48,483 nt of DNA. It comes from Chthoniobacterales bacterium. Lineage in GTDB: Bacteria; Verrucomicrobiota; Verrucomicrobiia; Chthoniobacterales; Chthoniobacteraceae. The first letter of the stretch is position 1. Every line of letters starts with the position of its first letter. Of this stretch, positions 377-25,308 are shown one piece after another. The DNA lies in the NCBI GenBank assembly GCA_041743065.1, contig JBGTNO010000018.1, positions 1-48,483 on the forward strand, written 5' to 3'. A program made the translations under genes and the position numbers. Below the pieces are notes generated by a model that worked only from the letters and a program-made list of their open reading frames with translations, was not told the DNA's origin and did no database searches.

Positions 377-450
377 CGCGGTCATCGTTCAAGAGCAGGA
401 TGCCTGGTTGCCAATCAGGCGATGCCGGTGCAATTCCGGCTGACCGCACC
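377..450 (+). tRNA. tRNA-Gly(GCC), non-canonical T-loop
   Basis: Acceptor GCGGTCA/TGACCGC; anticodon arm CCTGG-TTGCCAA-TCAGG; T arm GCCGG-TGCAATT-CCGGC; A73-CCA encoded. D-loop AAGAGCA lacks GG. Confidence 0.75.
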
Positions 451-473
451 ATTTTTCACTCATCATTATACCA

Positions 474-547
474 TACGGCGGGCGCCAGCTTGCGCAGCTC
501 GGTCTCCAAAACCAAGTGGGCTCGGGGCAGCACCGAGACGCCGTGCC
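474..547 (+). tRNA. tRNA-Trp(CCA), non-canonical T-loop
   Basis: Acceptor ACGGCGG/ACGCCGT (7:66 G.A); anticodon loop CTCCAAA; T arm CTCGG-GGCAGCA-CCGAG; G73-CCA. D region is irregular. Confidence 0.6.
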
Positions 548-559
548 ACTATTCAAAAA

Positions 560-632
560 TCGCGGGGGAGCCAGATGGGAAGGCAGCGGCCTCATAAGCC
601 GTCAACGAGCGGGTTCGATTCCCGCCCCCGCC
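560..632 (+). tRNA. tRNA-Met-type (CAU), canonical T-loop
   Basis: Anticodon arm GCGGC-CTCATAA-GCCGT; canonical T arm GCGGG-TTCGATT-CCCGC; D-loop with GGG. C1xC72 mismatch followed by 6 bp (initiator-like). A73 is followed by TCA, not CCA. Confidence 0.6.
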
Positions 633-643
633 ATCAATTTTAA

Positions 644-718
644 AGGGCCGCTAGATTAGTCAGGAAATCAGCCGGTTTGCACCCGGCAGTGCGGGGAGCA
701 TAGCCCCGGCGGTCCACC
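644..718 (+). tRNA. tRNA-Ala(UGC), non-canonical T-loop
   Basis: Acceptor GGGCCGC/GCGGTCC with G3.U70; D arm GATT-AGTCAGGA-AATC; anticodon arm GCCGG-TTTGCAC-CCGGC; T arm CGGGG-AGCATAG-CCCCG; A73-CCA. Confidence 0.8.
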
Positions 719-728
719 ATTTTTGTTA

Positions 729-840
729 AATCGCGGGAAGGTTGAGAACCCGACGCAACTGCGCCTTCGATGGACGCGGAGCGCATTCTGCGTAGCCGCC
801 GGAGCGGCAAAACCCGGGGAGTTTGGCTCCCGCCGATGCC
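729..840 (+). ncRNA. oversized tRNA-like unit, fold ambiguous
   Basis: 112 nt ending GCCGATG-CCA. Contains D arm GCGG-AGCGCATT-CTGC (775-790) and hairpin GCCGC-CGGA-GCGGC (794-807), homologous to unit 1796-1869. Acceptor pairing only 5/7; no 7-nt anticodon loop found. Confidence 0.3.
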
Positions 841-853
841 ATAGCGTTTCCCT

Positions 854-926
854 CTGTGAAGGGATGCGCTATCGCGCAGGCGTTCATAAGCTCTCTTATC
901 GTGGTGCGACTCCACGTCCCGCAACC
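854..926 (+). tRNA. degenerate tRNA-like unit with CAU loop
   Basis: T arm CGTGG-TGCGACT-CCACG; A73-CCA; loop TTCATAA. The anticodon stem has 2 mismatches and the acceptor needs a 2-nt bulge. Confidence 0.35.
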
Positions 927-934
927 ATTTCAGA

Positions 935-1022
935 TGCGGCGGTAGATCGCTAAAGACGCGAACCGGTCTGTAAAACCGGAGTCCTATCGGGCCGGTCGGG
1001 AGCGTTACCCGGACGCCGCACC
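935..1022 (+). tRNA. tRNA-Tyr(GUA), class II
   Basis: Acceptor GCGGCGG/ACGCCGC (7:66 G.A); anticodon arm CCGGT-CTGTAAA-ACCGG; 16-nt variable arm; T arm TCGGG-AGCGTTA-CCCGG; A73-CCA. Confidence 0.7.
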
Positions 1023-1023
1023 A

Positions 1024-1099
1024 CGGTCGTGGAGAGGATCAGCAGACTCGCCTGCCCGTCAAGCAGGAGACAGCGGGGGCAGCACCCGTCACGACCGCC
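1024..1099 (+). tRNA. tRNA-Asp(GUC), C33
   Basis: Acceptor GGTCGTG/CACGACC; anticodon arm CCTGC-CCGTCAA-GCAGG; T arm GCGGG-GGCAGCA-CCCGT; G73-CCA. Confidence 0.8.
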
Positions 1100-1108
1100 A
1101 TTTTCAGA

Positions 1109-1183
1109 CTTCCCCGTAGCTCAGCAGAAGAGCGCCGCTCTGCGAAGGCGGAGGCCGCTGGTGCGACTCCAGCCGGGGAAACC
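1109..1183 (+). tRNA. tRNA-Arg(GCG)
   Basis: Acceptor TTCCCCG/CGGGGAA; D arm GCTC-AGCAGAA-GAGC; anticodon arm CCGCT-CTGCGAA-GGCGG; T arm GCTGG-TGCGACT-CCAGC; A73-CCA. Confidence 0.8.
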
Positions 1184-1188
1184 ATTTA

Positions 1189-1263
1189 TCGGGCACGAGG
1201 AAGATAGCAATCCGCGCCGCTTGGGACGGCGAGACACCCGGAGCGTAACCGGGGTGCCCGACC
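1189..1263 (+). tRNA. tRNA-Pro(UGG)
   Basis: Acceptor CGGGCAC/GTGCCCG; anticodon arm CGCCG-CTTGGGA-CGGCG; T arm CCCGG-AGCGTAA-CCGGG; A73-CCA. Confidence 0.8.
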
Positions 1264-1272
1264 ATTTTCATT

Positions 1273-1337
1273 TGCTCCCGTGGCCGAGCAGAACAGAGGC
1301 ATCCGTCTTCTAAACGGAACAACGCAGGTGCAATTGC
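1273..1337 (+). pseudogene. 3'-truncated tRNA-Arg(UCU)-like unit
   Basis: 5' acceptor strand GCTCCCG; D arm GCC-(12 nt)-GGC; anticodon arm TCCGT-CTTCTAA-ACGGA; T-like hairpin CGCAG-GTGCAA-TTGCG. No complementary 3' strand before the next unit. Confidence 0.4.
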
Positions 1338-1416
1338 GGCTCCAGCCGCTATGCAATTTCCGCTCCGCGCCATGAGGGGGTGTGCTATCGCACCGGGCGT
1401 TCCTGCCGGGAGTGCC
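1338..1416 (+). pseudogene. degenerate tRNA-like unit, anticodon not assignable
   Basis: 3' end CGGGAGT-G-CCA pairs 6/7 with GCTCCAG (1338-1344) and 7/7 with GCTCCCG (1273-1279). Internal arms are poorly formed. Confidence 0.3.
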
Positions 1417-1431
1417 ATTTCAAAATTCCAA

Positions 1432-1506
1432 TTCCTCTCAATGCACAAAGTGTGCAGCCCGCCTGTTAAGCGGTGTGAGCCTGGTGCGATTCCAGGGGGA
1501 GGAGCC
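1432..1506 (+). tRNA. tRNA-Asn(GUU)
   Basis: Acceptor TCCTCTC/GGGAGGA; D arm TGCA-CAAAGTG-TGCA; anticodon loop CTGTTAA; T arm CCTGG-TGCGATT-CCAGG; G73-CCA. Confidence 0.8.
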
Positions 1507-1510
1507 ATTT

Positions 1511-1598
1511 TGGACAGTCAACCGGACCAGCGTGCCGGCGCCGGCCTGAACCCGGATGGAGCCGCAAGGCTTGAGGAGCATGTCCTCGGCTGTCCGCC
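1511..1598 (+). tRNA. tRNA-Ser(UGA), class II, C33
   Basis: Acceptor GGACAGT/GCTGTCC; anticodon stem CCGG/CCGG with loop CCTGAAC; variable arm AGCC-GCAA-GGCT; T arm TGAGG-AGCATGT-CCTCG. G73 is followed by CCC, not CCA. Confidence 0.65.
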
Positions 1599-1601
1599 CT
1601 T

Positions 1602-1725
1602 TTCCCGCGGTGTAACAGGCACACCTCGCGATTTCATAAATCGCAGATCTGGGTGCGATTGCCGCTTTAGGTTCGAAAGTAATTCAGGGGGGCTAACTCG
1701 CGTTGGCCGGTTCCCGGCGGGATCC
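1602..1725 (+). ncRNA. oversized (124 nt) tRNA-like unit with CAU anticodon arm
   Basis: Anticodon arm GCGAT-TTCATAA-ATCGC; T-like arm around TGCGATT with a G.G closing pair. 3' end GGCGGGA-T-CCA (1715-1725) pairs 6/7 with TCCCGCG (1602-1608). Confidence 0.35.
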
Positions 1726-1732
1726 AATTTCT

Positions 1733-1795
1733 CGCCCGCATGGTGCAAAAGCAGCACGTCTGGTTCTCAGCCAGAATGCTATGCGCGGAAGCGCT
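1733..1795 (+). pseudogene. tRNA-Glu(CUC)-like 5' body without own 3' acceptor strand
   Basis: GCCCGCA; D arm GTGC-AAAAGCA-GCAC; anticodon arm TCTGG-TTCTCAG-CCAGA; then GCGC-GGAA-GCGC hairpin in place of a T arm. Confidence 0.4.
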
Positions 1796-1869
1796 CACCT
1801 GCAACGCGGAGCGGTGACTGCATGGCGGCAGGAGCCGCAACACTCGGAGCATTACCAGGTGCGGGTGCC
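1796..1869 (+). ncRNA. anticodon-less tRNA-like RNA
   Basis: Acceptor ACCTGCA/TGCGGGT (7 bp); D arm GCGG-AGCGGTGA-CTGC; T arm CTCGG-AGCATTA-CCAGG; G73-CCC. The anticodon position holds GCGGC-AGGA-GCCGC (5 bp plus tetraloop). Confidence 0.45.
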
Positions 1870-1874
1870 CCTTT

Positions 1875-1948
1875 CCCCTCCATAGCTCAAAAGCAGAGCA
1901 CCCGGCCGATAACCGGGCGACCGGGGAGCATTACCTCGTGGAGGGACC
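1875..1948 (+). tRNA. tRNA-Ile(GAU), C33
   Basis: Acceptor CCCTCCA/TGGAGGG; D arm GCTC-AAAAGCA-GAGC; anticodon arm CCCGG-CCGATAA-CCGGG; T arm CGGGG-AGCATTA-CCTCG; A73-CCA. Confidence 0.8.
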
Positions 1949-1952
1949 ACTC

Positions 1953-2027
1953 TGGCTGCGTAGCTGAGAGAGATTAGCGCCTCGCTGAAGACGAGGAGAG
2001 TCCGGCGCGATACCGGACGCAGCCACC
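1953..2027 (+). tRNA. tRNA-Phe(GAA)
   Basis: Acceptor GGCTGCG/CGCAGCC; anticodon arm CCTCG-CTGAAGA-CGAGG; T arm TCCGG-CGCGATA-CCGGA; A73-CCA. Confidence 0.8.
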
Positions 2028-2036
2028 ATTTTTCAT

Positions 2037-2111
2037 CGCGTCATTGGTGTAACAGCAAGCACGGCGGTCTTCCAAACCGCGGGCGTCGGGGCAGCACCGG
2101 CATGGCGCACC
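2037..2111 (+). tRNA. tRNA-Gly(UCC)
   Basis: Acceptor GCGTCAT/ATGGCGC; D arm GTGT-AACAGCAA-GCAC; anticodon arm GCGGT-CTTCCAA-ACCGC; T arm GTCGG-GGCAGCA-CCGGC; A73-CCA. Confidence 0.8.
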
Positions 2112-2120
2112 ATTTTTCGA

Positions 2121-2197
2121 TTCCTCCGTGGCAGAGGTCAGCAATGCACTCCTCTCGTACAGGAGATCATGCCGGGGCAGCGCCGGCCGGAGGATCC
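2121..2197 (+). tRNA. tRNA-Thr(CGU)
   Basis: Acceptor TCCTCCG/CGGAGGA; anticodon arm CTCCT-CTCGTAC-AGGAG; T arm GCCGG-GGCAGCG-CCGGC; U73-CCA. Confidence 0.8.
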
Positions 2198-2204
2198 ATT
2201 TTAG

Positions 2205-2280
2205 TGGAGGTCGTGATGTAACAGCCAGCATTCGATCCTGTGAAGATCGCTGAGCGGGGGCAGCACCCGTCGACCTCCCC
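2205..2280 (+). tRNA. tRNA-His(GUG) with encoded G-1
   Basis: G-1 (2205) lies opposite C73 (2277). Acceptor GAGGTCG/CGACCTC; D arm ATGT-AACAGCCA-GCAT; anticodon arm CGATC-CTGTGAA-GATCG; T arm GCGGG-GGCAGCA-CCCGT; CCA. Confidence 0.8.
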
Positions 2281-2290
2281 ACTTTCATAA

Positions 2291-2366
2291 GCGCGCACAA
2301 GGCAAAGTCGTCGAACCGGCGGTCTGCAAAACCGCTTTACCCGGTGCGAGTCCGGGGTGCGCGTCC
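2291..2366 (+). tRNA. tRNA-Cys(GCA)
   Basis: Acceptor CGCGCAC/GTGCGCG; anticodon arm GCGGT-CTGCAAA-ACCGC; T arm CCCGG-TGCGAGT-CCGGG; U73-CCA. Confidence 0.75.
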
Positions 2367-2371
2367 ACTTT

Positions 2372-2442
2372 TGGGGCCATCACTGAAGAGCAGGATGGCG
2401 CATTCGCATTGCGTTGATCGGGGTGCAATTCCCCGTGGCTCC
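2372..2442 (+). tRNA. tRNA-Ala(CGC)
   Basis: Acceptor GGGGCCA/TGGCTCC with G3.U70; anticodon arm GCGCA-TTCGCAT-TGCGT; T arm CGGGG-TGCAATT-CCCCG; A73; no CCA. D stem is weak. Confidence 0.65.
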
Positions 2443-2451
2443 AGTTTTTTA

Positions 2452-2526
2452 TCGGGCACGAGGAAGACAGCAATCCGCGCCGTTCGGATCGGCGAGACAC
2501 TCGGGGCAGCACCGAGGTGCCCGACC
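2452..2526 (+). tRNA. tRNA-Pro(CGG)
   Basis: Acceptor CGGGCAC/GTGCCCG (same as 1189-1263); anticodon arm CGCCG-TTCGGAT-CGGCG; T arm CTCGG-GGCAGCA-CCGAG; A73-CCA. Confidence 0.8.
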
Positions 2527-2538
2527 ACTTTTCGAAAA

Positions 2539-2610
2539 CTCCGCCAAAGCGTAGGCAGCGACGCACCCGGTCGGTAACCGGGAGAGGCCGGTGCATGCCC
2601 GGCTGGCGGA
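2539..2610 (+). tRNA. tRNA-Thr(GGU), C33
   Basis: Acceptor TCCGCCA/TGGCGGA; D arm GCGT-AGGCAGCG-ACGC; anticodon arm CCCGG-TCGGTAA-CCGGG; T arm GCCGG-TGCATGC-CCGGC. U73 is followed by CGC. Confidence 0.7.
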
Positions 2611-2623
2611 TCGCTTTTCAGAA

Positions 2624-2761
2624 TCCCGGGGAAGAGCACCGGTCGCTCGTCAGCCTCAGAAGCTGGAGGCAGTTGGTTCGATTGCCAGCGTCTTCCGACG
2701 CTGCCCTTTGGGCTGTGCTGTCGCACAGGCTGTCTCGCCACTCGCTCCAACCCCCGGAACC
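2624..2761 (+). ncRNA. oversized (138 nt) tRNA-like unit with CAG anticodon arm
   Basis: D arm GAGC-ACCGGTC-GCTC; anticodon arm TCAGC-CTCAGAA-GCTGG; T arm GTTGG-TTCGATTG-CCAGC; then hairpins GCGTC-TTCC-GACGC and TGTGC-TGTC-GCACA. 3' end CCCCGGA-A-CCA pairs 6/7 with CCCGGGG (2624-2630). Confidence 0.35.
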
Positions 2762-2767
2762 ACTTTT

Positions 2768-2843
2768 ACGCTCCGTAGCATAACGAGCAGTGCGGCGGTC
2801 TCATAAGCCGTCAGGTGCTGGTGCGATTCCAGCCGGAGCGACC
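2768..2843 (+). tRNA. tRNA-Met/Ile2-type (CAU)
   Basis: Acceptor CGCTCCG/CGGAGCG; D arm GCAT-AACGAGCA-GTGC; anticodon arm GCGGT-CTCATAA-GCCGT; T arm GCTGG-TGCGATT-CCAGC; A73-CCA. Confidence 0.8.
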
Positions 2844-2849
2844 ATCTTT

Positions 2850-2941
2850 GGGAAGTTAAAGCGGACAAGCGAGCCGCCGCCGGTTGGAAGCCGGACAGAC
2901 CTCGACTTCGAGGTTGTGGAGCATGCCCACTGACTTCCGCC
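2850..2941 (+). tRNA. tRNA-Ser(GGA), class II
   Basis: Acceptor GGAAGTT/GACTTCC; D arm GCGG-(9 nt)-CCGC; anticodon loop TTGGAAG; variable arm ACCTCG-ACTT-CGAGGT; T arm GTGG-AGCATGC-CCAC; G73-CCA. Confidence 0.75.
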
Positions 2942-2946
2942 ATTCT

Positions 2947-3088
2947 TGGGTCGCAAGCATTGCAGTGATGCAGCGGTTTGACGCTCCGGCGTCCATGCTG
3001 TCAGTGCTCCGCGCCTTTGGAGAGGGGCGCTGCGCGCGCCCTGCATTCTTAAACCGCAGAGCGCGGGGCAGCACCGTGGCGACCCACC
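2947..3088 (+). ncRNA. oversized (142 nt) tRNA-like unit, no clean anticodon loop
   Basis: GGGTCGC (2947-2953) pairs with GCGACCC-A-CCA (3078-3088). D arm GCAT-TGCAGTG-ATGC; T arm CGCGG-GGCAGCA-CCGTG (3061-3077). The interior holds hairpins GACGC-TCCG-GCGTC and GCGCC-(10 nt)-GGCGC. Confidence 0.3.
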
Positions 3089-3093
3089 ATTCT

Positions 3094-3236
3094 TGGAAGC
3101 TGAACCGGACAGCCGAGCGCAGCGAGACAGCCAGCCTAACTTCCTTTCAAAACAATGCGGGCAACCGTGCCGGGACTGTTTCGAAAACAGATCGTTCCGC
3201 CTTGCGGAATGGGGAGCATGCCCTCCGGCTTCCGCC
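3094..3236 (+). tRNA. oversized unit containing a class II tRNA-Ser(CGA)-like body
   Basis: From ~3155: D arm CGG-(9 nt)-CCG; anticodon stem CTGT/ACAG with loop TTCGAAA; variable arm TTCCG-CCTTG-CGGAA; T arm GGGG-AGCATGC-CCTC; G73-CCA. The only complementary 5' strand (GGAAGCT) sits 54 nt upstream at 3094-3100. Confidence 0.45.
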
Positions 3237-3244
3237 ACTTTTTT

Positions 3245-3321
3245 CGCCAGCGTGGATGGACAAGAAATCTCACCGCTTTTGTAAAGCGGAGGATGCGGGA
3301 GCGTTACCCGCCGCTGGCTCC
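3245..3321 (+). tRNA. tRNA-Thr(UGU)
   Basis: Acceptor GCCAGCG/CGCTGGC; anticodon arm CCGCT-TTTGTAA-AGCGG; T arm GCGGG-AGCGTTA-CCCGC; U73-CCA. Confidence 0.75.
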
Positions 3322-3329
3322 ACTTCCAA

Positions 3330-3403
3330 TTGCCCCGTGATGTAACAGCAGCATAACCGGCTCTGACCCGGTTCGCGTTGGTGCGAATCCAGCCGGGGCA
3401 GCC
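3330..3403 (+). tRNA. tRNA-Gln(CUG)
   Basis: Acceptor TGCCCCG/CGGGGCA; D arm ATGT-AACAGCA-GCAT; anticodon arm ACCGG-CTCTGAC-CCGGT; T arm GTTGG-TGCGAAT-CCAGC; G73-CCA. Confidence 0.8.
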
Positions 3404-3417
3404 ATTTCTCCAATTCC

Positions 3418-3501
3418 TGCGCCGGTAGATCATCAGCAGATCGCCGCACCGATCCGCCGCGGCGGACGGAGGCAGGCGGGGCAGCACCGCCCCGGCGCAC
3501 C
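3418..3501 (+). ncRNA. anticodon-less tRNA-like RNA with extended central helix
   Basis: Acceptor GCGCCGG/CCGGCGC; D arm GATC-ATCAGCA-GATC; T arm GGCGG-GGCAGCA-CCGCC; A73-CCA. The central arm is a long helix (3448-3468, one bulge) capped by tetraloop CGCG; there is no 7-nt loop. Confidence 0.45.
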
Positions 3502-3509
3502 ATCTTCAA

Positions 3510-3585
3510 CGCTCCCGTAGCTCAACGTATAGAGCACCGCGCTTCGAACGCGGAGGTTGCAGGCGAAATTCCTGCCGGGAGTGCC
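3510..3585 (+). tRNA. tRNA-Arg(UCG)
   Basis: Acceptor GCTCCCG/CGGGAGT; D arm GCTC-AACGTATA-GAGC; anticodon arm CCGCG-CTTCGAA-CGCGG; T arm GCAGG-CGAAATT-CCTGC; G73-CCA. Confidence 0.8.
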
Positions 3586-3592
3586 ACCCTTC

Positions 3593-3667
3593 TCCCGGCG
3601 TAGCCCAATGCAGAGACAACGAGTTCAGACCTCGTTCAGTGCGGGTGCAAGTCCTGCCGCCGGGACC
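3593..3667 (+). tRNA. tRNA with Leu anticodon CAG, class I architecture
   Basis: Acceptor CCCGGCG/CGCCGGG; anticodon arm ACGAG-TTCAGAC-CTCGT; 5-nt variable loop; T arm GCGGG-TGCAAGT-CCTGC; A73-CCA. Confidence 0.7.
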
Positions 3668-3672
3668 ATTTT

Positions 3673-3747
3673 CGCTCCCGTAGCCCAACGCAGCAGAGGC
3701 AGCCGGCTTAAACCCGGCCAAGTGTCGGTGCGAATCCGACCGGGAGC
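3673..3747 (+). tRNA. tRNA with Leu anticodon UAA, class I architecture
   Basis: Acceptor GCTCCCG/CGGGAGC; anticodon arm GCCGG-CTTAAAC-CCGGC; 5-nt variable loop; T arm GTCGG-TGCGAAT-CCGAC; A73; no CCA. Confidence 0.7.
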
Positions 3748-3755
3748 ACGAGTTA

Positions 3756-3830
3756 AGCCCGCGTAGTCCAACGCAGAGACATCCGCCTCAAAAACGGACC
3801 AGTGCAGGTGCAAGTCCTGCCGCGGGCACC
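3756..3830 (+). tRNA. tRNA with Leu anticodon CAA, class I architecture
   Basis: Acceptor GCCCGCG/CGCGGGC; D arm GTC-(8 nt)-GAC; loop CTCAAAA on stem TCCG/CGGA; T arm GCAGG-TGCAAGT-CCTGC; A73-CCA. Confidence 0.7.
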
Positions 3831-3832
3831 AA

Positions 3833-3923
3833 AGGAACGTGAACCGGACAAGCGAGCCGGGATTCTTTGCTAAGGAAATCGATCCGCGCTGCGGATTGGG
3901 GAGCATGCCCTCCGCGTTCCGCC
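3833..3923 (+). tRNA. tRNA-Ser(GCU), class II
   Basis: Acceptor GGAACGT/GCGTTCC; D arm CCGG-(9 nt)-CCGG; anticodon loop TTGCTAA; variable arm ATCCG-CGCTG-CGGAT; T arm GGGG-AGCATGC-CCTC; G73-CCA. Confidence 0.75.
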
Positions 3924-3936
3924 ATTTTCTCCGTAA

Positions 3937-4017
3937 CGACCTCTCGTGGTGTAAAGCAGCACGAACGTCCTATGCCCGTTGAACCTGAGACGCGGGTACG
4001 AGTCCTGGCGGGAGGTC
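3937..4017 (+). tRNA. atypical tRNA-like unit, possible UAU anticodon, C33
   Basis: 10-bp terminal helix GACCTCTCGT/GCGGGAGGTC; D arm GTGT-AAAGCA-GCAC; stem AACG/CGTT with loop CCTATGC; 12-nt variable region; T arm CGGG-TACGAGT-CCTG; no CCA. Confidence 0.4.
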
Positions 4018-4028
4018 TTTTCCTTTAC

Positions 4029-4104
4029 TGCCCGTGAATGCAAAGAGCCGAGCGCCTCGCCTTTCAAGTGAGACCTAGCCGGTGCGAGTCCGGCCACGGG
4101 TGCC
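4029..4104 (+). tRNA. tRNA-Glu(UUC)
   Basis: Acceptor GCCCGTG/CACGGGT; anticodon arm CTCGC-CTTTCAA-GTGAG; T arm GCCGG-TGCGAGT-CCGGC; G73-CCA. Confidence 0.75.
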
Positions 4105-4111
4105 ATTTTCA

Positions 4112-4187
4112 TGCTCGCGTAGCCCAACAGTAGAGGCACTGCGTCGAGAGCGCAGCCAGTGCGGGTGCGAATCCTGCCGCGAGCACC
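4112..4187 (+). tRNA. tRNA with Leu anticodon GAG, class I architecture, C33
   Basis: Acceptor GCTCGCG/CGCGAGC; anticodon arm CTGCG-TCGAGAG-CGCAG; 5-nt variable loop; T arm GCGGG-TGCGAAT-CCTGC; A73-CCA. Confidence 0.75.
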
Positions 4188-4194
4188 ATTTGAA

Positions 4195-4268
4195 GGGGCC
4201 GAAAGCATTAAAGTGATGCAACGGACTTTTAATCCGTCGAACGGGGAGCATTACCCCGGCGGCCCACC
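4195..4268 (+). tRNA. tRNA-Lys(UUU)
   Basis: Acceptor GGGCCGA/GCGGCCC (7:66 A.G); D arm GCAT-TAAAGTG-ATGC; anticodon arm ACGGA-CTTTTAA-TCCGT; T arm CGGGG-AGCATTA-CCCCG. A73 is followed by CCT. Confidence 0.7.
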
Positions 4269-4269
4269 T

Positions 4270-4343
4270 TTCCCGAGTCGTCTAATAGGAGGACGCCTGG
4301 CCTACACCCAGGAGTCGGGGGAGCATAACCTCCACGGGCGACC
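4270..4343 (+). tRNA. tRNA-Val(UAC)-like, C33, weak acceptor
   Basis: D arm GTC-(9 nt)-GAC; anticodon arm CCTGG-CCTACAC-CCAGG; T arm GGGGG-AGCATAA-CCTCC; A73-CCA. The 5' acceptor strand pairs only 4 bp. Confidence 0.55.
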
Positions 4344-4598
4344 ATCTTTCCACTGGACTCAGTTCCAGCAGCCGACCGGCATCGCCGGATCCGGTTCTGC
4401 ATATCGGGAGTCCAGTGTCTGGCAAATCGGCGCAAGCCGACTGGGTTCGACTCCCATCATACGGGTCCGTGACGGTGACCAGCCCGGACCCAGTCGGGGC
4501 AGCCGCGACGCAGCCTGCGCGGGAGAGCCATTGCACTTTCGCCCGTTGCCGAGCCGCGGTCGCCGTCACGGGCCACAACTTTCAACCAAGGAGGAAAC
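4344..4598 (+). other. structured non-coding leader between the array and the first CDS
   Basis: 9-bp helix ACTGGACTC (4351-4359)/GAGTCCAGT (4407-4415) enclosing two hairpins. TCGGC-GCAA-GCCGA hairpin, then a canonical T-arm-like TGGG-TTCGACT-CCCA (4441-4455). GGGTCC/GGACCC helix (4462-4490). The ...GGGAGAG-CCA motif ends at 4529. RBS AAGGAGG at 4587-4593. Confidence 0.4.
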
Positions 4599-5405: not shown

Positions 5406-5509
5406 GATGCGAGGGAGGAAGGCACGCCCCGGCGGGGATTCGTCTCCGCCGGGGTGATGCGGCCCCCAAGCAATCAACCCCAATCACCAACATAGAAAGG
5501 AGGTTCCCC

Positions 5510-6286: not shown

Positions 6287-6500
6287 CCACGCAACTGACG
6301 CCGTCCGGAGCCATCCGTTCCGGGCGGCGTCCTCATTTTCCACGAATCCAAACCTCAACCCATCCACATCAATGCAATCACATAAATCCATCTCCAAGCC
6401 GGGAGTCTCGCTGAGGCTCTCGAACCAAACTCAATCAGTCCGCGACGACATCCGCTCCGGCTTTCTGCCGGTGCCACGCGCGCGGTCAAAAACATAAAGT

Positions 6501-7307: not shown

Positions 7308-7443
7308 GGAATGGCTTCAACGCAGCCGGGGAGGGTGACAAGCCTTCCCCGGCTGCATCTTTTCGACATAAAGAACAGACACCGCTGCGCACTCGGAGTG
7401 TGTCCGCACACCGCGCTCCTACTTTTCAATACGAACCACATCC

Positions 7444-19639: not shown

Positions 19640-19736
19640 GGCTGGGAAGGAAATCCTGGCGTCGAGCGAGAGCCGTCTCTTCGTCCTCATCGAACTCGCC
19701 CGACAGCGATTTCTTTGTCTATGATGCCCCGCCAAA

Positions 19737-21137
19737 ATGCTTCTGACAATCGCCACCACACACCAACCGGCAACGGATCTCGGGCATCTGCTGCGAAAGA
19801 ATCCAGCGCGGATGCAGAGCTTCCAGCTCAGTTTCGGCCAGGCCCACGTATTCTATCCGGAGGCAACGGAAGGGAGTTGCAAGGCTGCGCTGCTTCTGGA
19901 AATTGATCCGGTTGGGCTTGTTCGGGGGCGTCACGGACCAGCGGGGGAAGGCCGCTCGCTCGAGCATTACGTAAATGACCGTCCGTATGTGGCTTCATCA
20001 TTTCTGAGCGTCGCGATCGCCGAAGTCTTCGGGAGTGCGTTGTCGGGTAGAAGCAAAGAGCGTCCTGAACTGGTCAACTCGCCACTGCCGCTCGCGGCTT
20101 CTATCGCGGCTTTGCCTTGCCGGGGTGGCGAAGCGTTCCTGCGCCGGCTGTTCGAGCCGCTCGGCTACCGGTTAAGCGTTACAGGGCATCCGTTGGATGA
20201 AAATTTTCCAGACTGGGGCGAGAGCCCGTATTTCACAGTGACGCTCGACGCGACCCTGCCGCTGCGCGTGCTGCTCTCGCACCTTTACGTGCTCATTCCG
20301 GTGCTGGATAACGACAAGCACTACTGGGTCGGCGATGATGAGGTGGACAAACTTCTGCGCCATGGCGAAGGCTGGCACGGCACGCATCCAGAGCGCGACT
20401 TGATCACTCGCCGCTATCTCAAGCACCGGCGAAGTCTGGTTGACGACGTTCTGAGCCGACTGACTGAAGAGGACAACCCCGATCCCGATAGTGCCGAACA
20501 GATTCATTCGCAGGAAGAGGCGCAGTTCGAGGAGAAGATCAGTCTGAATGAACAGCGGCTCGGCGCGGTGCTCGCGGAGTTGAAACGCAGCGGCGCCAAA
20601 CGGGTGCTCGACCTCGGCTGCGGCGAGGGTCGGCTCGTGCGTGCGTTGCTCAAGGAAAAGCAGTTCGAGGAAATCGTCGGAATGGATGTTTCGTACCGCG
20701 CCCTCGAAATCGGTCGCGAACGGCTTGATCGCCTTCCGCCGATGCAGCAGAATCGCATCCGGCTAATTCACGGCTCACTGATCTATAGGGACATACGACT
20801 TGCTGGCTATGATGCGGCCGCCGTCGTGGAAGTGATCGAGCATCTCGATCCGCCACGGCTCGCGGCGTTCGAGCGCGTGCTATTCGAATGCGCGAAACCC
20901 GCGACGGTCGTTCTCACGACCCCCAACGCGGAATACAACGTGAAGTGGGAATCGCTGCCAGCAGGGAAGTTCCGGCACAAGGATCACCGGTTCGAGTGGA
21001 CGCGCGAGCAGTTTCAAGTTTGGGCGAAAGGCGTGGCCGGACGCTTTGGCTACACTGCCAAGTTTTTACCTGTCGGACCGGAAGACGCCACCGTCGGCGC
21101 GCCGACTCAAATGTCTGTGTTCGTGCGATCAGACTAA
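19737..21137 (+). CDS. hen1: RNA 3'-terminal 2'-O-methyltransferase Hen1 (bacterial type)
   Basis: N-terminal MLLTIATTHQPATDLGHLLRKNP...FGQAHVFYPE; C-terminal SAM methyltransferase VLDLGCGEGRL...VVEVIEHLD. Confidence 0.85.
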   Translation: MLLTIATTHQPATDLGHLLRKNPARMQSFQLSFGQAHVFYPEATEGSCKAALLLEIDPVGLVRGRHGPAGEGRSLEHYVNDRPYVASSFLSVAIAEVFGSALSGRSKERPELVNSPLPLAASIAALPCRGGEAFLRRLFEPLGYRLSVTGHPLDENFPDWGESPYFTVTLDATLPLRVLLSHLYVLIPVLDNDKHYWVGDDEVDKLLRHGEGWHGTHPERDLITRRYLKHRRSLVDDVLSRLTEEDNPDPDSAEQIHSQEEAQFEEKISLNEQRLGAVLAELKRSGAKRVLDLGCGEGRLVRALLKEKQFEEIVGMDVSYRALEIGRERLDRLPPMQQNRIRLIHGSLIYRDIRLAGYDAAAVVEVIEHLDPPRLAAFERVLFECAKPATVVLTTPNAEYNVKWESLPAGKFRHKDHRFEWTREQFQVWAKGVAGRFGYTAKFLPVGPEDATVGAPTQMSVFVRSD

Positions 21138-22756
21138 TGAATATCCGAAACGCAATTGTCAGGATGTGCTGGCCATGGCGGCACCGCGCCGCGAGCGGAG
21201 CGGTTGATCGTGCGGCGCAGGTCTCGACTATCAAACAGCTTGGCGAGGCCGGCACGCCTTCCAGTCTCTGGCATCTTCTCGAATACCTCTCGTCGTCAGA
21301 TTCATCGGTTAGAGAAGCCGCCGGATCTTCGATCGCGCAGCAACTCGATCTGGTGCCTCCTGCGCACCTATCGAAACTTGATGAGAGTCTCCGGGCAGCA
21401 ACTGCCTCGAACTGGAATCTGGACGGATGGCGGCGCCTTACGCCAGAGCAGGTAGGTGCTTTCGCCGACGATGCAAACGCATGGGCAATGCTGGGGGTGT
21501 CCAGCTTCCATCCGAATGGATATGTCCGGGAAAAATCGGTGCGCATTCTTGGCGCCATGCGCGACCGGAAGATTCTTGGTTTTCTACTCCTTCGGGTAAA
21601 CGACTGGGTGGCTCCCATCCGTTCGATGGCGCAGAGCGAGGTGCTCGCCCGCCTGACTCAGGAGAACTCCATGATGTGGATTCAGAATCTTCCGCTTGTA
21701 ACACGCCTGGAGTCATGCGGGCGTGGAATGCATGAGACAATCGTCGAAGCTGTGTATGGCCTTCTGGTAAACTCCGAGTGCCGAGATGCCTTGGTCAACG
21801 GTATCACTTCCGGTGACCGTGACATTCGCAGAGCCTGCTTTCGGGTGGTGGAAAGAATGCCCGAAATCCAAACGCGCCCTTTGCTTGAGGCTGCCATCGA
21901 AACTCAAGATCCCATTCTCCGCTTTCGCGCCTCGCAGCGCCTTCTCCGCCAAGTTCATATCGCGGATCTCGATCGGCTCTGCGAACGCTTTTTGAGCGAT
22001 CATTTCATGCCGGTTCGTCGCGCGGCGCTTGAGAGCGCGGTTGATCGAGGCTCAGGGAAGTTGGTGGCTTTTCTGCTCGAGGCGCTCGTTGATCGACATG
22101 CCAGCATTCGGGAACTGGCCCGCTTTCACCTGGTTCGGCGACACAATATTGACGTTCGGGCTGAGTATATTCAATTGCTCAAGACTTCTCGCGGCAAGAG
22201 ATTGGCGGCGACGATCCTCGGCTTGGGCGAGATCGGCGCCCAAGAGGATTTCGACTTAATCAAACCCTACCTGCAATCACACCCAGTTCAGGTGTGTATG
22301 GCAGCAACAGTGGCGGTCGGCCGCCTGGCTCCAACGGAAGCTCTCCCTTTTCTCTTGAAGGCTTTGCAAGGAGACAGCCCCGGCATCTCCCGGCAGGCAG
22401 AGCGGGCGCTTGCCCCCCAGGCGAACTCCGTTCCATACAAGGAACTGGTATCGATATTTCAAGGGAGTCCCAAGCCACACGTGCGAAGAAATACAATTCG
22501 GCTCCTTGTCAGGGGCACTAAATGGGAACGGCTCAGCCCACTCATCAGCGCCTGCGGCGATGATGATCCACAAGTTCGAGAGATTGCGAAGGCTGCTGTT
22601 GAGAAGTGGTTGTATCGATACAACGTCAGCTTCTTGCAGCCAACTCAGCGGCAGGTCGAGTCGGCACAATCAGCGATGGCTGTGGCCGGCGACCAATTGT
22701 CCGCAGCCGTTCGCCAGAACCTTACCACCCTGCTTTGTGATTGGGAGAAACGATGA
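21137..22756 (+). CDS. HEAT-repeat protein
   Basis: Start ATG overlaps the hen1 stop (TAATG). Repeated helical HEAT-like units (VREAAGSSIAQ, VRRAALESA, IRELARFHL, VQVCMAATVAVGRL, VREIAKAAV). Confidence 0.65.
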   Translation: MNIRNAIVRMCWPWRHRAASGAVDRAAQVSTIKQLGEAGTPSSLWHLLEYLSSSDSSVREAAGSSIAQQLDLVPPAHLSKLDESLRAATASNWNLDGWRRLTPEQVGAFADDANAWAMLGVSSFHPNGYVREKSVRILGAMRDRKILGFLLLRVNDWVAPIRSMAQSEVLARLTQENSMMWIQNLPLVTRLESCGRGMHETIVEAVYGLLVNSECRDALVNGITSGDRDIRRACFRVVERMPEIQTRPLLEAAIETQDPILRFRASQRLLRQVHIADLDRLCERFLSDHFMPVRRAALESAVDRGSGKLVAFLLEALVDRHASIRELARFHLVRRHNIDVRAEYIQLLKTSRGKRLAATILGLGEIGAQEDFDLIKPYLQSHPVQVCMAATVAVGRLAPTEALPFLLKALQGDSPGISRQAERALAPQANSVPYKELVSIFQGSPKPHVRRNTIRLLVRGTKWERLSPLISACGDDDPQVREIAKAAVEKWLYRYNVSFLQPTQRQVESAQSAMAVAGDQLSAAVRQNLTTLLCDWEKR

Positions 22757-25308
22757 AGATTACGATTCCAGAGCTAGCGTTTGTGGTTCTTATCGGTCCA
22801 TCCGGATCGGGGAAATCGACGTTTGCCCGCCGTCACTTCAAACCCACGGAAGTGTTGTCCTCGGATCATTGCCGAGGGCTCGTGTGCGATGACGAGAATG
22901 ATCAGGCGGCGACGCCGGATGCGTTTGCCGTTCTGAACTTCATCGCGTCGAAGCGACTCGCCAGCGCGAAGCTGACGGTCGTCGATGCCACAAACGTTCA
23001 GGAGGAATCCCGGAAGCCACTGGTTGCGCTGGCTCGGCAGTATCACTGCCTGCCCGTCGCCATCGTTTTCGATCTCCCGGAGAAGCTGTGTCACGAGAGG
23101 AATCAGAGCCGTCCCGACCGCACGTTTGGGTCGCATGTCGTGCGGCAGCAGACTCAGCAGATGCAGCGCTCACTCCGCAAGTTACAGCGGGAAGGTTTCC
23201 GCCATGTCTTCGTTCTCCGCACTCTTGAAGAAGTCGAGGAGGTCACGATCGAACGGCAGCCGCTGTGGAACAACAAGCGGGATGAGCACGGCCCGTTTGA
23301 CATCATTGGCGATGTGCACGGTTGTTTCGACGAACTTGCCGCACTCCTGGCAGAGCTGGGCTACGAGCCGCAACCGGGCGGAAGCTACGCGCATTCTGAA
23401 GGGCGAAAACTGATCTTCGTCGGTGATCTCGTCGATCGCGGGCCGAAGATTCCCGAGGTTGTACGGCTCGTTATGGAGTCGATCAAAGCCGGGCACGCGT
23501 TCTGTGTTCCAGGTAATCACGACATCAAATTCATGCGCGCGGTGTGGGGCAAGGACGTGCAGATCAAACACGGTCTCGCCGAGTCTCTGGAGCAGTTCAA
23601 GGCGTACGAAGAACATTATCGTGGATTCAGTCGGGTGGCAGCGGAGTTCATCGACTCCCTCGTGAGCCACTACGTTTTTGACGACGGGAGGCTGGTCGTC
23701 GCCCATGCCGGGATGAAAGAGGAGATGCAGGGGCGGGGGTCTGGCCGCGTTCGGGAGTTCGCGCTTTACGGAGAAACGACAGGTGAAAGCGATGAGTTCG
23801 GTCTGCCGGTGCGCTACAACTGGGCGGCAGATTATCGTGGCAAGGCGATGGTTGTTTACGGCCACACTCCGGTGCCCGAGCCCGAGTGGCTCAATCGAAC
23901 CATCAACATCGATACGGGCTGTATTTTTGGAGGAAAACTCACCGCGCTTCGCTATCCGGAGAAGGAAATGGTCTCCGTGCCCGCGGCGCACACCTACTGT
24001 GTGCCCGCGCGTCCTTTCCTTGAGGAAGGCATCGCGGCCCCGGTGTTGAGCGCGCAGCATCAGCTCGATGATCTGCTCGACATGGAGGACGTTCTGGGCA
24101 AGCGGATCATCTCCACCCGCTTGCGTCAGAACGTTACGATCCGCGAAGAGAACGCGATCGCAGCGCTGGAGGTGATGAGCCGATTTGCGGCGAATCCGAA
24201 ATGGCTGATCTACCTGCCGCCGACGATGTCTCCGACGGAGACGACGAAAGAGCCGGGCCTGCTCGAGCATCCCGCCGAGGCATTTGCCTACTATCGGCAC
24301 GAAGGCGTAGCTCGGGTGGTTTGCGAGCAAAAGCACATGGGCTCCCGTGCCGTTATCATCGTCTGCCGAAACAGCGAGGCGGCGCTCAAGCGTTTTGGTG
24401 TCGTGGACGAGTCCGGCATCATCTATACGCGGACCGGAAGGCGATTCTTTGACGATGCGGAGATCGAGGGTGCGCTCCTTTCGAAGATCCGCGCCGCACT
24501 CGACGCGGCGAATTTCTGGGAGGAGTTCACGACAGATTGGGTCTGTCTGGACTGCGAGCTGATGCCATGGTCGGCGAAGGCGCAGGAATTGTTGCGCCAG
24601 CAATACGCCGCTGTCGGCGCCGCTGCCCGCGCATCGCTTTCGTGTGCTATCGATGCGTTGGTGTCCGCCGAGGCGCGAAGACTGGATGTCACCGATATGC
24701 TCGGACGGTCGCGCGCAAGGGACGAGGCGGCAGGCAAATATGTGGACGCTTATCGACGCTACTGCTGGCCCGTCAACTCACTTGCCGATCTCAAAGTCGC
24801 CCCATTTCATCTGCTGGCCACTGAAGGCAAAGTCCACTCGGATCGCGACCACTTTTGGCACATGGCAGCGCTGGCGAAGATCTGCACCGCAGAGCCGGAA
24901 CTTCTCCTCGCGACCGCCCACATGACGGTCGATGTCACAAGCCCTGCCAGCCAGGACGAGGGCATCGCGTGGTGGACGGACATGACGAACGCCGGCGGCG
25001 AGGGAATGGTTGTCAAGCCTCTCGACTTCGTCGCGACCGGCCGCCGGGGCCTGATCCAACCGGCGGTCAAATGCCGGGGCCGGGAATACCTGCGAATCAT
25101 TTACGGCCCGGAATACACCGCGCCGGAGAATCTCGAACGCCTTCGTTCGCGCGGTCTCGGGAGGAAACGCTCGCTCGCTCTGCGAGAGTTCGCCCTCGGT
25201 CTGGAAGCTTTGGAGCGCTTTGTGACTCGTGAGCCGCTGCGTCGCGTCCATGAGTGCGTATTTGGAGTTCTCGCCCTCGAAAGCGAGCCGGTGGATCCTC
25301 GCCTATGA
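22753..25308 (+). CDS. pnkp: polynucleotide kinase-phosphatase/ligase Pnkp
   Basis: P-loop kinase GPSGSGKST; calcineurin-like phosphatase GDVHGC...GDLVDRGP...GNHD; C-terminal adenylyltransferase with the EQKHMGSR lysine motif. The start overlaps the HEAT gene stop (ATGA). Confidence 0.85.
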   Translation: MKITIPELAFVVLIGPSGSGKSTFARRHFKPTEVLSSDHCRGLVCDDENDQAATPDAFAVLNFIASKRLASAKLTVVDATNVQEESRKPLVALARQYHCLPVAIVFDLPEKLCHERNQSRPDRTFGSHVVRQQTQQMQRSLRKLQREGFRHVFVLRTLEEVEEVTIERQPLWNNKRDEHGPFDIIGDVHGCFDELAALLAELGYEPQPGGSYAHSEGRKLIFVGDLVDRGPKIPEVVRLVMESIKAGHAFCVPGNHDIKFMRAVWGKDVQIKHGLAESLEQFKAYEEHYRGFSRVAAEFIDSLVSHYVFDDGRLVVAHAGMKEEMQGRGSGRVREFALYGETTGESDEFGLPVRYNWAADYRGKAMVVYGHTPVPEPEWLNRTINIDTGCIFGGKLTALRYPEKEMVSVPAAHTYCVPARPFLEEGIAAPVLSAQHQLDDLLDMEDVLGKRIISTRLRQNVTIREENAIAALEVMSRFAANPKWLIYLPPTMSPTETTKEPGLLEHPAEAFAYYRHEGVARVVCEQKHMGSRAVIIVCRNSEAALKRFGVVDESGIIYTRTGRRFFDDAEIEGALLSKIRAALDAANFWEEFTTDWVCLDCELMPWSAKAQELLRQQYAAVGAAARASLSCAIDALVSAEARRLDVTDMLGRSRARDEAAGKYVDAYRRYCWPVNSLADLKVAPFHLLATEGKVHSDRDHFWHMAALAKICTAEPELLLATAHMTVDVTSPASQDEGIAWWTDMTNAGGEGMVVKPLDFVATGRRGLIQPAVKCRGREYLRIIYGPEYTAPENLERLRSRGLGRKRSLALREFALGLEALERFVTREPLRRVHECVFGVLALESEPVDPRL

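Follow-up and report, generated by a model that had tools for sequence, protein, structure and literature searches.

The locus described here raises the question of whether a dense tRNA gene array and two RNA ligase systems, which lie within 25 kb of each other, belong to a single system. The window, by which we mean the complete stretch of DNA analysed (48,483 nucleotides (nt)), is contig JBGTNO010000018.1 of a Chthoniobacterales bacterium (GenBank assembly GCA_041743065.1). A first-pass annotation had proposed that positions 377-25308 form an "RNA-damage resilience island" with three modules: a full but diverged tRNA complement, an RtcB-type ligase module and a Pnkp/Hen1 module. All three are present within the 25 kb. 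Comparison with related loci indicates, however, that it is the tRNA array and the RtcB module which represent one conserved, co-oriented and co-migrating unit. We consider it fairly probable that positions 224-9426 are a self-contained, horizontally mobile operon of the type "L-array plus RNA repair", typical of Verrucomicrobiota, and that the Hen1-HEAT-Pnkp genes are separate from it.

The extent of the unit is delimited by DNA homology to relatives. When the window is compared with its closest relatives, DNA similarity sets in at position 224 or 235 and ends at about 9417, which is the end of the HNH gene. The similarity is confined to this region, and therefore the hard unit is a cassette of about 9.2 kb (224-9426), not of 25 kb. 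All of its elements are on the forward strand, in the order structured leader RNA, about 40 tRNA units, and the genes for a Band-7/SPFH protein, RlaP, a conserved protein of 268 amino acids, RtcB and an HNH endonuclease.

The Band-7 gene was used as the marker gene of the cassette. A scan for homologues (one genome per species) resulted in 80 loci, 71 of which are verrucomicrobial (46-73% protein sequence identity) and 9 distant. The homologues point to Chthoniobacterales/Verrucomicrobiota. In 49 of the 71 verrucomicrobial loci, tRNA units abut the Band-7 gene, which is located within or adjoins a same-strand array of the same peculiar units as in the window (3-28 units within 10 kb on either side). 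A covariance model of the window units (see below) has 561 matches (E<=1e-6) across 28 Band-7 loci and, among the matches listed, 300 of 300 are on the Band-7 strand. The 49 array loci code for HNH in 32 cases, for RtcB in 26 (orthologues with at least 55% identity in 17, paralogous RtcB in 9 more), and for RlaP and the 268-residue protein in 10 cases each. Whenever present, these genes are co-oriented with the array. The co-oriented cluster of Band_7 (PF01145), RlaP (PF10127) and RtcB (PF01139) has the same order in loci L015, L018 and L166. The 9 distant loci, which come from Chloroflexi, Actinobacteria and Acidobacteria, served as a control and were found to have none of these cassette features. 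The flanks of the cassette differ in every chromosomal locus compared. A megablast search with positions 1-25000 of the window against plasmids and phages returned zero matches. One carrier of the cassette is a cultured organism, Chthoniobacter flavus Ellin428 (L015, NZ_ABVL01000011.1:144595-165389).

The ligase module (4599-9426, all genes on the forward strand) is present as the first-pass annotation had stated. Its first gene (4599-5405; PF01145, E 2e-28) codes for a Band-7/SPFH protein (slipin) with an N-terminal hydrophobic helix. It is followed by rlaP (5510-6286; PF10127, E 4e-92, full length), which codes for an RNA-ligase-associated Pol-beta nucleotidyltransferase. RlaP extends damaged RNA 3' ends by 1-2 nucleotides, and over-trimmed tRNA depends on it to become chargeable again after repair (PMC12776372). 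The conserved 268-residue protein (6501-7307) has 5269 homologues, all of them unnamed, and zero matches in Pfam, NCBIfam, PHROGs, PADLOC and PDB sequences. Its AlphaFold2 model (predicted local distance difference test (pLDDT) 88, predicted template modelling score (pTM) 0.80) has no Foldseek neighbour in PDB or BFVD at E<0.1. RtcB (7444-8838; PF01139, E 1e-81) is a 3'-phosphate/2',3'-cyclic-phosphate RNA ligase; such enzymes join 2',3'-cyclic-phosphate or 3'-phosphate ends to 5'-OH ends. An exact-protein look-up of the window RtcB gave no record. An open reading frame (ORF) that overlaps the RtcB gene (7311-7700, 129 residues) was judged to be spurious, having no matches and reading through stop codons in the RtcB frame. 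The HNH endonuclease (8839-9426; HNH_4/HNH) marks the 3' boundary of the cassette. Homologues of this protein with 30-35% identity are encoded next to the tRNA arrays on the plasmids pNsp_d from Nostoc and pCBMA213_1 from Mycolicibacterium.

The tRNA array (378-4344, forward strand) consists of about 40 tandem units, of which at least 28 are well formed and about 10 are degenerate. ARAGORN reports 12 tRNAs, all on the forward strand and located between 378 and 4188, while the Rfam tRNA model finds 14 at its gathering score and 18 at E<=1. Many more units, ending with CCA followed by TTT, are visible upon reading the sequence. A cloverleaf scan that is blind to loop sequence yielded about 30 clean units in the window. 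From 27 of these, a covariance model was built and run with filters off. It has 42 matches in the window (E<=1), 41 of which are on the forward strand between 340 and 4344, and a single marginal match (E=0.99) is in the remaining 44 kb. The number of clean cloverleaves is about 28-30, and about 10 units are degenerate, truncated or have a long arm. The cloverleaf is canonical in its stems and loops (7-bp acceptor stem, 5-bp T stem, 7-nt T and anticodon loops), and in most units an encoded CCA precedes a T-run. The units are not recent duplicates, as indicated by a mean column identity of 54% among the 27 aligned units and by the non-repeating order of anticodons. The array has the layout of an L-array (at least 20 tRNA genes at a density of at least 2 per kb), its genes being closely spaced, in one orientation, non-periodic and diverse in their isoacceptors.

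Anticodons for 20 amino acids are represented. Well-formed units carry anticodons for Gly (GCC, TCC), Trp (CCA), Met (CAT, two units), Ala (TGC, CGC), Tyr (GTA), Asp (GTC), Arg (GCG, TCG), Pro (TGG, CGG), Asn (GTT), Ile (GAT), Phe (GAA), Thr (CGT, GGT, TGT), His (GTG), Cys (GCA), Gln (CTG), Glu (TTC) and Lys (TTT). The Leu units (CAG, TAA, CAA, GAG) are well formed and have a short arm, and the Ser units (TGA, GGA) have a long arm. The only Val unit (TAC, 4270-4344) has an imperfect acceptor stem. Thus, the complement is diverged as had been annotated and covers 20 amino acids, but it is not full at the level of codon boxes.

A few units have individual peculiarities. A canonical T-loop of sequence TTCGATT is seen only once in the array, in a tRNA-Met(CAT) unit (561-636) whose first acceptor pair is mismatched and which ends with TCA instead of CCA. 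This may be an initiator-type tRNA. Aberrant units are found at 1737-1785, 1279-1348, 2633-2689 and 3419-3502, the types being a T-arm-less unit, an Arg unit (TCT) with a T-loop insertion, an acceptor-stem-less unit with a canonical T-loop and a unit with an oversized anticodon arm. The 250-nt spacer between the array and the Band-7 gene (4345-4598) contains T-arm-like fragments.

What sets the array units apart is the elbow, where the D-loop and the T-loop meet. In elongator tRNAs, G18, G19 and T54-psi55-C56 are universal (PMC7609411). In the window, the units have N-G-C instead of T-T-C in the T-loop and lack GG in the D-loop. The analysis was extended across the loci by a high-confidence scan that scores no loop sequence. 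It collected 443 units from the array strand; the 9 hits from the opposite strand correspond to about 2% false positives. T-loop position 55 is G in 97% of the 443 units, and a model-based alignment has G55 in 149 of 150 units. The D-loop GG occurs in 10% of the array units compared to 91% of the few U55 tRNAs in the same loci. Canonical U55/GG tRNAs are also encoded in the flanks of several related cassettes (L013, L018, L021, L026 and L066). In the array units, the D-loop has a dinucleotide A-N in which N tracks T-loop position 56 (covariation of 19:56): C56 occurs with AG in 98%, G56 with AC in 69% (compared to about 31% elsewhere) and A56 with AT in 83% of the cases. Positions 54:58 co-vary as T:A, A:T and G:G. 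The canonical combination of G18 and G19 with T54-psi55-C56 is thus lacking in nearly all array units, while the G19:C56 pair is retained or compensated. From the covariation at 19:56 and 54:58 it follows that the outer Watson-Crick pair of the elbow and the fold of the T-loop are maintained. The universal G18-psi55 contact is replaced by A18-G55 in nearly every array tRNA. The plasmid arrays from Nostoc (24 tRNAs) and Mycolicibacterium (29 tRNAs) have canonical T and D loops, apart from one G55 unit in Nostoc; therefore, the altered elbow is a lineage trait and not a general property of L-arrays.

Outside the elbow, the features that determine the amino acid identity of a tRNA are preserved in the 443 units. 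The G3:U70 pair is present in 12 of 12 Ala units and in only 1 of 437 units across all other specificities. His units have C73 (13/14) and G-1 (11/14). The discriminator base is U73 in Cys (25/25), A73 in Leu (48/48) and G73 in Gln (23/24), Asn (13/13) and Ser (6/7). CCA is encoded in 405 of the 443 units. All 48 Leu units lack a long variable arm (71-75 nt), although the scan could miss Leu units with a long arm; Ser and Tyr units retain theirs (85-87 nt). Arg is decoded by GCG/TCG rather than by ACG and, in many arrays, Ile is decoded by UAU. Patterns of this kind are typical of chargeable tRNAs under purifying selection. The array units are apparently chargeable.

Alternatively, the units might have no role in decoding and instead act as decoys or sponges for toxins that target tRNAs, or as RNA cofactors in a ribonucleoprotein with Band-7. 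This would fit with the non-canonical elbow, with the failure of standard tRNA finders to detect half of the units and with the many degenerate units, some of which lack the T-arm. An abstract by Burroughs and Aravind (2016) reportedly links Band-7 to tRNA-like RNA. A sponge role has been raised for the operonic tRNAs of Anabaena (PMC8421152). For a decoy, however, the target site of the toxin would suffice, yet identity elements, including G-1 in His and G3:U70 in Ala, and the CCA end have been preserved in over 40 species, with none of the 20 specificities lost. The preservation of identity elements, discriminators and CCA argues against junk or pure decoys, and we regard this alternative as unlikely.

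The array is preceded by a structured leader RNA of about 150 nt (224-377, forward strand). Besides an invariant core, it contains two variable hairpins, and it closes with a GC-rich hairpin (340-373) directly before the first tRNA. The core in the window consists of GAGGTGTGCC / AAACACCGAAA / GGTGTTCGTTCTTT. In the leader alignment, the three invariant blocks are GAGGTGTGCC, AAACACCGAAA and GGTGTTTGTTCTTT, and the terminal hairpin ends 1-8 nt upstream of the first tRNA. The leader is more strongly conserved than the cassette proteins: its core has 84-88% DNA sequence identity in loci where the Band-7 protein is only 46-55% identical to that from the window. A strict leader pattern was found in 40 loci (e.g., L016:7850-7997), with one copy per locus and always on the array strand, and it was found zero times in controls or in Hen1 loci. 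The leader is also present in L038 and L076, where the array is missing and the Band-7 gene is directly downstream. Thus, it marks the start of the operon rather than the tRNAs as such.

The leader structure is supported by covariation, which was analyzed by RNAalifold and by pair counting, with shuffles and slid partners as controls. Compensatory changes were found for 12 pairs, whereas shuffles gave 6.5+-1.4 (0 of 500 shuffles) and sliding the partners gave 2-5. The 12 pairs cluster in the variable hairpins and in the terminal one. Folding for minimum free energy gives a three-way junction and a hairpin. The junction is closed by AAACACC:GGTGTTT (z = -4.2 in L016 and -1.7 in the window, from single-sequence folds). 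AAACACC can alternatively pair with an upstream GGTGT; neither alternative involves the terminal hairpin. From these folds, a switch between the two pairings is conceivable. The terminal hairpin of L016 scores as an intrinsic terminator of textbook form, with 11 bp ahead of TTTTAATTTC. The leader resembles attenuators, with a covarying structure followed, as in L016, by an intrinsic terminator upstream of the genes. It has no family in Rfam 15, with only spurious matches at E>0.08. We consider it a candidate cis-regulatory RNA. In the group to which the window belongs, the hairpin ends with GCGCCGCCA-TTTC and resembles an acceptor-like minihelix with a CCA end and a tRNA-style T-run. This minihelix (340-373) might be processed like a tRNA. 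Two other readings of the leader were rejected: a leader peptide (there is an ATG in a distant group, which is not conserved in the window group) and a T-box-like pairing of UGGN with NCCA (not conserved).

The conservation of the leader and the elbow bears on a further alternative, namely that a selfish tRNA-gene array is spread by an HNH homing endonuclease, without benefit for the carrier and with its units in decay. While the HNH gene at the boundary, the patchy distribution and the approximately 10 degenerate units in the window would be expected in this case, the compensatory changes at 19:56 and 54:58 and the preserved identity elements would not. The same holds for a leader core that is so much better conserved than the Band-7 protein downstream of it, and for the constant linkage to repair enzymes. 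We consider a purely selfish array very improbable.

If the cassette is an L-array with RNA repair functions, as we favour, a role as a stress-induced supply of spare tRNAs with associated repair can be proposed by analogy with the trn operon from Anabaena and from the enzymology of the protein families. The L-array from Anabaena PCC 7120 is silent but is induced, together with rtcB and an HNH gene, by ribosome-targeting antibiotics; 23 of its 26 tRNAs are charged, and it aids survival (Santamaria-Gomez et al. 2021, PMC8421152). Its control involves TrcR, a repeat-binding repressor (PMC10272220). By analogy, the verrucomicrobial operon would stay off as long as translation and the tRNA pool are intact. 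Once either is impaired, transcription would proceed through the leader hairpin and generate a polycistronic precursor, from which a replacement tRNA set is obtained. RtcB would reseal tRNAs that have been cut to 2',3'-cyclic-phosphate and 5'-OH ends, and RlaP would add back what has been trimmed on the 3' side of the break. The membrane-anchored Band-7 protein may serve as a scaffold, and the HNH protein may be an endonuclease for mobility or maintenance.

Several observations weigh against this reading. Degenerate units make up about one-quarter of the array, the only Val unit has its imperfect acceptor stem, and not every codon box has a decoder. The contig is identical with the window, so that the view of the tRNAs in the source genome is limited to the window. 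Gene content is variable, with RlaP and the 268-residue protein found in only 10 of 49 array loci, for which contig truncation is partly responsible. The leader hairpin from the window fails in a terminator scan: its loop is 14 nt long, and in place of a proper T-run it is followed by no more than CATTTC. No convincing sigma-70 promoter was found when the window and L016 were scanned. Among the leader folds, no pairing was found that competes with the terminal hairpin, and because no such antiterminator has been identified, conditional read-through is a conjecture.

It is tempting to speculate about the purpose of the altered elbow. We tentatively propose that the array is a complete "orthogonal-elbow" set that escapes effectors which read the universal T-loop, that the leader switches this set on together with RtcB and RlaP, and that the cassette is traded among bacteria and phages as a life-raft for translation. 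The A18/G55 elbow may render the spare set refractory to tRNases that recognise the universal T-loop or elbow. An example of an effector acting at this site is the toxin CdiA-CT E479, whose cleavage site is between the T and the psi that are conserved in the T-loop (PMC9086364). The set may also dispense with host modification, as it offers no U54/U55 to TrmA and TruB, uses Arg GCG in place of A34-to-I conversion and uses Ile UAU in place of lysidine.

The cassette is not confined to chromosomes. In an IMG/VR contig (L165:772-16662), it is located between the genes for the large terminase and a lambda-type portal protein, upstream of a major head protein. A near-identical relative of this contig (L164) has an identical terminase just upstream of the leader or array. 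In a second phage (L170:8333-10105), the terminase, which is 80% identical, is just upstream of the leader. In the window and in L166, the flanks are chromosomal. From the phage and chromosomal flanks it follows that the cassette moves as a block between chromosomes and phages. Patchy distribution and horizontal transfer, together with an associated HNH gene, are further characteristics of L-arrays, and they are seen here in the differing flanks, the phage copies and the homologous HNH proteins.

The phage copies raise the possibility that the cassette is a counter-defence payload of phages or mobile elements which keeps translation alive when, upon infection, tRNAs are destroyed by the host or by a rival element, with chromosomal copies representing stranded or domesticated cargo. 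The position in the head-packaging region of one phage lineage (L164/L165 and L170) is consistent with this, as is the fact that homologues of the HNH protein are common in large tRNA-rich phages and that the flanks are different in every chromosome. A precedent is the RNA repair by Pnk/Rnl1 from phage T4, which counters PrrC. In mycobacteria, tRNA arrays have been discussed as anti-defence systems (PMC12803027). However, the leader was found in only 4 of 2.9 million IMG/VR contigs, compared to tens of bacterial species, and the window has no phage structural genes. The lasting chromosomal conservation of leader, elbow and identity elements favours selection at the level of the host. A counter-defence payload is thus possible, but we do not consider it probable.

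The remaining part of the proposed island is the Pnkp/Hen1 module. This system heals RNA, 2'-O-methylates it and seals it in such a way that the junction cannot be recut. The RNA 3'-terminal 2'-O-methyltransferase Hen1 (19737-21137, forward strand) has Hen1_L and methyltransferase domains (TIGR04074, 716 bits, cutoff 340). Its gene is the first of a Hen1-HEAT-Pnkp operon on the forward strand, in which the gene for a HEAT-repeat protein (21137-22756; HEAT_2, E 2e-26) separates it from that for the kinase-phosphatase-ligase Pnkp (22741-25308; AAA_33, Metallophos and PNKP_ligase; TIGR04075, 1447 bits, cutoff 750). Both enzymes exceed their NCBIfam equivalog cutoffs about twofold, which corroborates the annotated module. 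The start of the HEAT gene overlaps the Hen1 stop codon (TAATG), and the end of its ORF overlaps the predicted start of Pnkp. In L093 and L103, the slot between Hen1 and Pnkp is likewise taken by homologues of the HEAT protein (31-33% identity), and others are found beside HNH/RtcB in array cassettes (L053:12931-14370 and L054:13716-15260). The HEAT-repeat family may be an unrecognised accessory of RNA repair.

A scan for Hen1 resulted in 80 metagenomic loci (65-75% identity). Pnkp follows Hen1 nearly everywhere, with a variable slot in between that contains HEAT genes (the window, L093 and L103), RlaP-like genes (L102, L106 and L107) or other genes. None of the 49 array loci has Hen1 or Pnkp within 10 kb of the array, although an arrangement with a gap of 10.3 kb, as in the window, could be missed in a few loci when 10-kb flanks are analyzed. 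Conversely, about 75 of the 80 Hen1 loci are devoid of tRNAs, and 79 of 80 have no Band-7/RtcB nearby. The two ligase systems thus appear to be separately distributed in the relatives, which is most of the pattern that the first-pass annotation itself had named as speaking against an island. The part of its proposal that joined array and RtcB module stands (homology over 224-9417); Pnkp/Hen1 lies outside of this unit. We take it as probable that Hen1-HEAT-Pnkp is a separate and independently transcribed neighbour, another cargo of a variable, defence-rich region rather than a fixed part of the cassette.

That the whole region 377-25308 is one selected island, with modules co-regulated as layered protection, seems doubtful to us. 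All three modules are intact and located within 25 kb, and there are tight fusions elsewhere. L091 (6699-14151) has the order Band7-RtcB-(1.1 kb)-Hen1-Pnkp and is the only Hen1 locus with adjoining Band-7 and RtcB. L062 (7032-13167), from the Band-7 scan, has Band7-Hen1-(1.4 kb)-Pnkp. In L161 (9-4800; also L160:42-1632), a short metagenomic contig, an array of 9-11 units is directly upstream of Hen1-Pnkp; its T-loops are mostly canonical (TTC), with one G55 tRNA-Cys. Such immediately upstream tRNAs occur in about 5 of the 80 Hen1 loci. Neither the leader nor the tRNA units are present in L062 and L091, and the leader pattern is absent beside the Hen1 loci. The fusions in L062, L091 and L161 exceed what random adjacency would give. 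In addition, HEAT proteins occur both between Hen1 and Pnkp and in array cassettes, and RlaP-like genes are found between Hen1 and Pnkp in several loci. These rare fusions and shared families (Band-7, RlaP and HEAT) indicate that the modules belong to one shuffling toolkit, in keeping with what Burroughs and Aravind (2016) reportedly put forward for RNA repair at large. Against an island stand, besides the separate distribution, the intervening 10 kb, which are not shared with relatives except for a LysR homologue in two loci, and the region upstream of Hen1. The Hen1 operon has an upstream region of its own, which is divergent from a DUF2071 gene and contains neither a copy of the leader nor a shared operator. 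A 12-mer (CAATAGCTGACC) that occurs at 153-164 and at 19510-19521 was evaluated as a potential operator and rejected as a chance match. Its second copy falls within the coding sequence of the DUF2071 gene, the similarity does not extend beyond the 12-mer and, with 2 mismatches allowed, there are 4 matches in comparison to 2.5 expected.

The genes between the cassette and the Hen1 operon (serpin, MORN protein and others) are as previously described, and none of those in the 9.5-19.7 kb range recurs beside a cassette, with the exception of that for a LysR-type regulator (15052-15966). Its homologues (64-65% identity) are L024:7248-8159 and L031:7943-8845, both on the reverse strand. They are inside the cassette on the opposite strand, between leader and Band-7. 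Two overlapping ORFs share the serpin gene (9609-10945), one matching positions 2-87 of the Pfam profile and the other positions 80-370; the split reflects either a frameshift or a sequencing error.

Beyond the Hen1 operon, the window contains further defence-related genes. At 25507-30974 (reverse strand, convergent on Pnkp), two overlapping ORFs match consecutive parts of one PADLOC candidate (PDC-S37 / Hhe-like) with DUF4011, helicase, REase_MTES_1575 and WGR domains. Together they probably represent a single defence gene that has been frameshifted or split. Toxin-antitoxin remnants (VapC, AbiE) had been annotated in the window. VapC did not hold up, as no VapC/PIN domain was found in the ORFs scanned. 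AbiE is present, but as an intact pair (45668-47552) rather than a remnant. The antitoxin AbiEi (AbiEi_4, 45668-46846) is followed by the nucleotidyltransferase toxin AbiEii (46776-47552; PF08843 E 2e-28, PADLOC E 3e-76), which is the layout of a type IV toxin-antitoxin system. Immediately next to the stop codon of AbiEii there is a group II intron, which continues beyond the end of the contig. It is on the reverse strand and consists of domain V/VI (47544-47699) and a reverse transcriptase/maturase (47739-48476). Genes for the salvage of nicotinamide adenine dinucleotide (NAD) are located at 34502-42846 (PnuC, NadR-like, NAPRTase, PRPP-synthetase-like, nicotinamidase, NrtR and ADP-ribosylglycohydrolase), with a second Band_7 gene (41821-42846) at the end of the cluster. 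The cluster resembles NAD-reconstitution counter-defence sets. It was not adopted as a fourth "damage-reversal" module because it matches what we take to be the ordinary layout of an NrtR regulon.

Among L-arrays, that of Anabaena is the sole case that has been experimentally studied. A set for 20 amino acids in which the near-invariant G18-psi55 contact is altered bears on the role of the elbow, on the evasion of toxins and immune systems and on the design of orthogonal tRNAs. The leader, which is widespread and unclassified, could reveal how damage to the translation apparatus is sensed. The supply of tRNAs is fused to RtcB/RlaP/Band-7 repair in one transcript-sized unit that is also phage-borne. 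With Chthoniobacter flavus Ellin428 as a cultured carrier, these questions are directly testable.

L-arrays with HNH and rtcB, Band-7/RlaP/RtcB systems, Pnkp/Hen1 and the idea of arrays as anti-defence systems have already been published. In our literature search, we did not find a near-universal A18/G55 elbow in a complete, identity-preserving set (more than 40 species), the conserved leader of the cassette or phage-borne copies downstream of packaging genes (between them in L165). The closest relatives in terms of organisation are the L-arrays from Anabaena/Nostoc. These likewise have dozens of co-oriented, non-periodic tRNAs for most amino acids, have spread horizontally and have rtcB nearby. 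An HNH gene is at the edge in both cases; the copy from the Nostoc plasmid is 30% identical and is directly upstream of 24 tRNAs (L081:8701-10718, from pNsp_d of Nostoc sp. ATCC 53789). Short-arm tRNA-Leu and tRNA-Ile(UAU) are also shared, the Nostoc array coding for a tRNA-Leu (TAA, 75 nt), a tRNA-Ile (TAT) and one G55 tRNA-Glu (CTC) among 24 otherwise canonical tRNAs. In contrast, nearly all cassette units have G55 and lack G18, whereas cyanobacterial and mycobacterial arrays have TTC/GG (G55 in 1 of 24 tRNAs from Nostoc). Also, the cassette has RtcB, RlaP and Band-7 inside the operon, and its control apparently involves a leader with a terminator-like hairpin, instead of or besides a repressor such as TrcR from Anabaena.

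Burroughs and Aravind (2016, NAR 44:8525) are reported to have described Band-7/SPFH-RlaP-RtcB systems with a "novel tRNA-like molecule" and a modular "syntax" of RNA-repair systems. The protein trio and the association with a tRNA-like RNA are thus in common. The cassette may differ in its RNA, which is an array of about 40 units with 20 specificities and intact identity elements. The bacterial Pnkp/Hen1 system is reportedly that of Clostridium thermocellum and Anabaena variabilis (Martins and Shuman; Chan et al. 2009). The window has full-length equivalogs of its enzymes with all domains in one operon, but with Hen1 first and a HEAT gene inserted. Among phages, in addition to the T4 precedent, tRNAs from T5-like phages escape anticodon nucleases. 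As in such sets, tRNA supply and RNA ligase occur together on a phage (L165 and L170). However, escape would here depend on the elbow (18/55) rather than on the anticodon loop. The cassette also differs in having RtcB as its ligase and in being found mostly on chromosomes. Finally, the RtcBA/RtcR operon from Proteobacteria (PMC7790460, PMC9650030) also uses RtcB (with RlaP in Pseudomonas) for damaged tRNA and rRNA; the cassette differs from it in having neither RtcA nor control by RtcR/sigma-54 and in linking the ligase to a tRNA array and a Band-7 protein.

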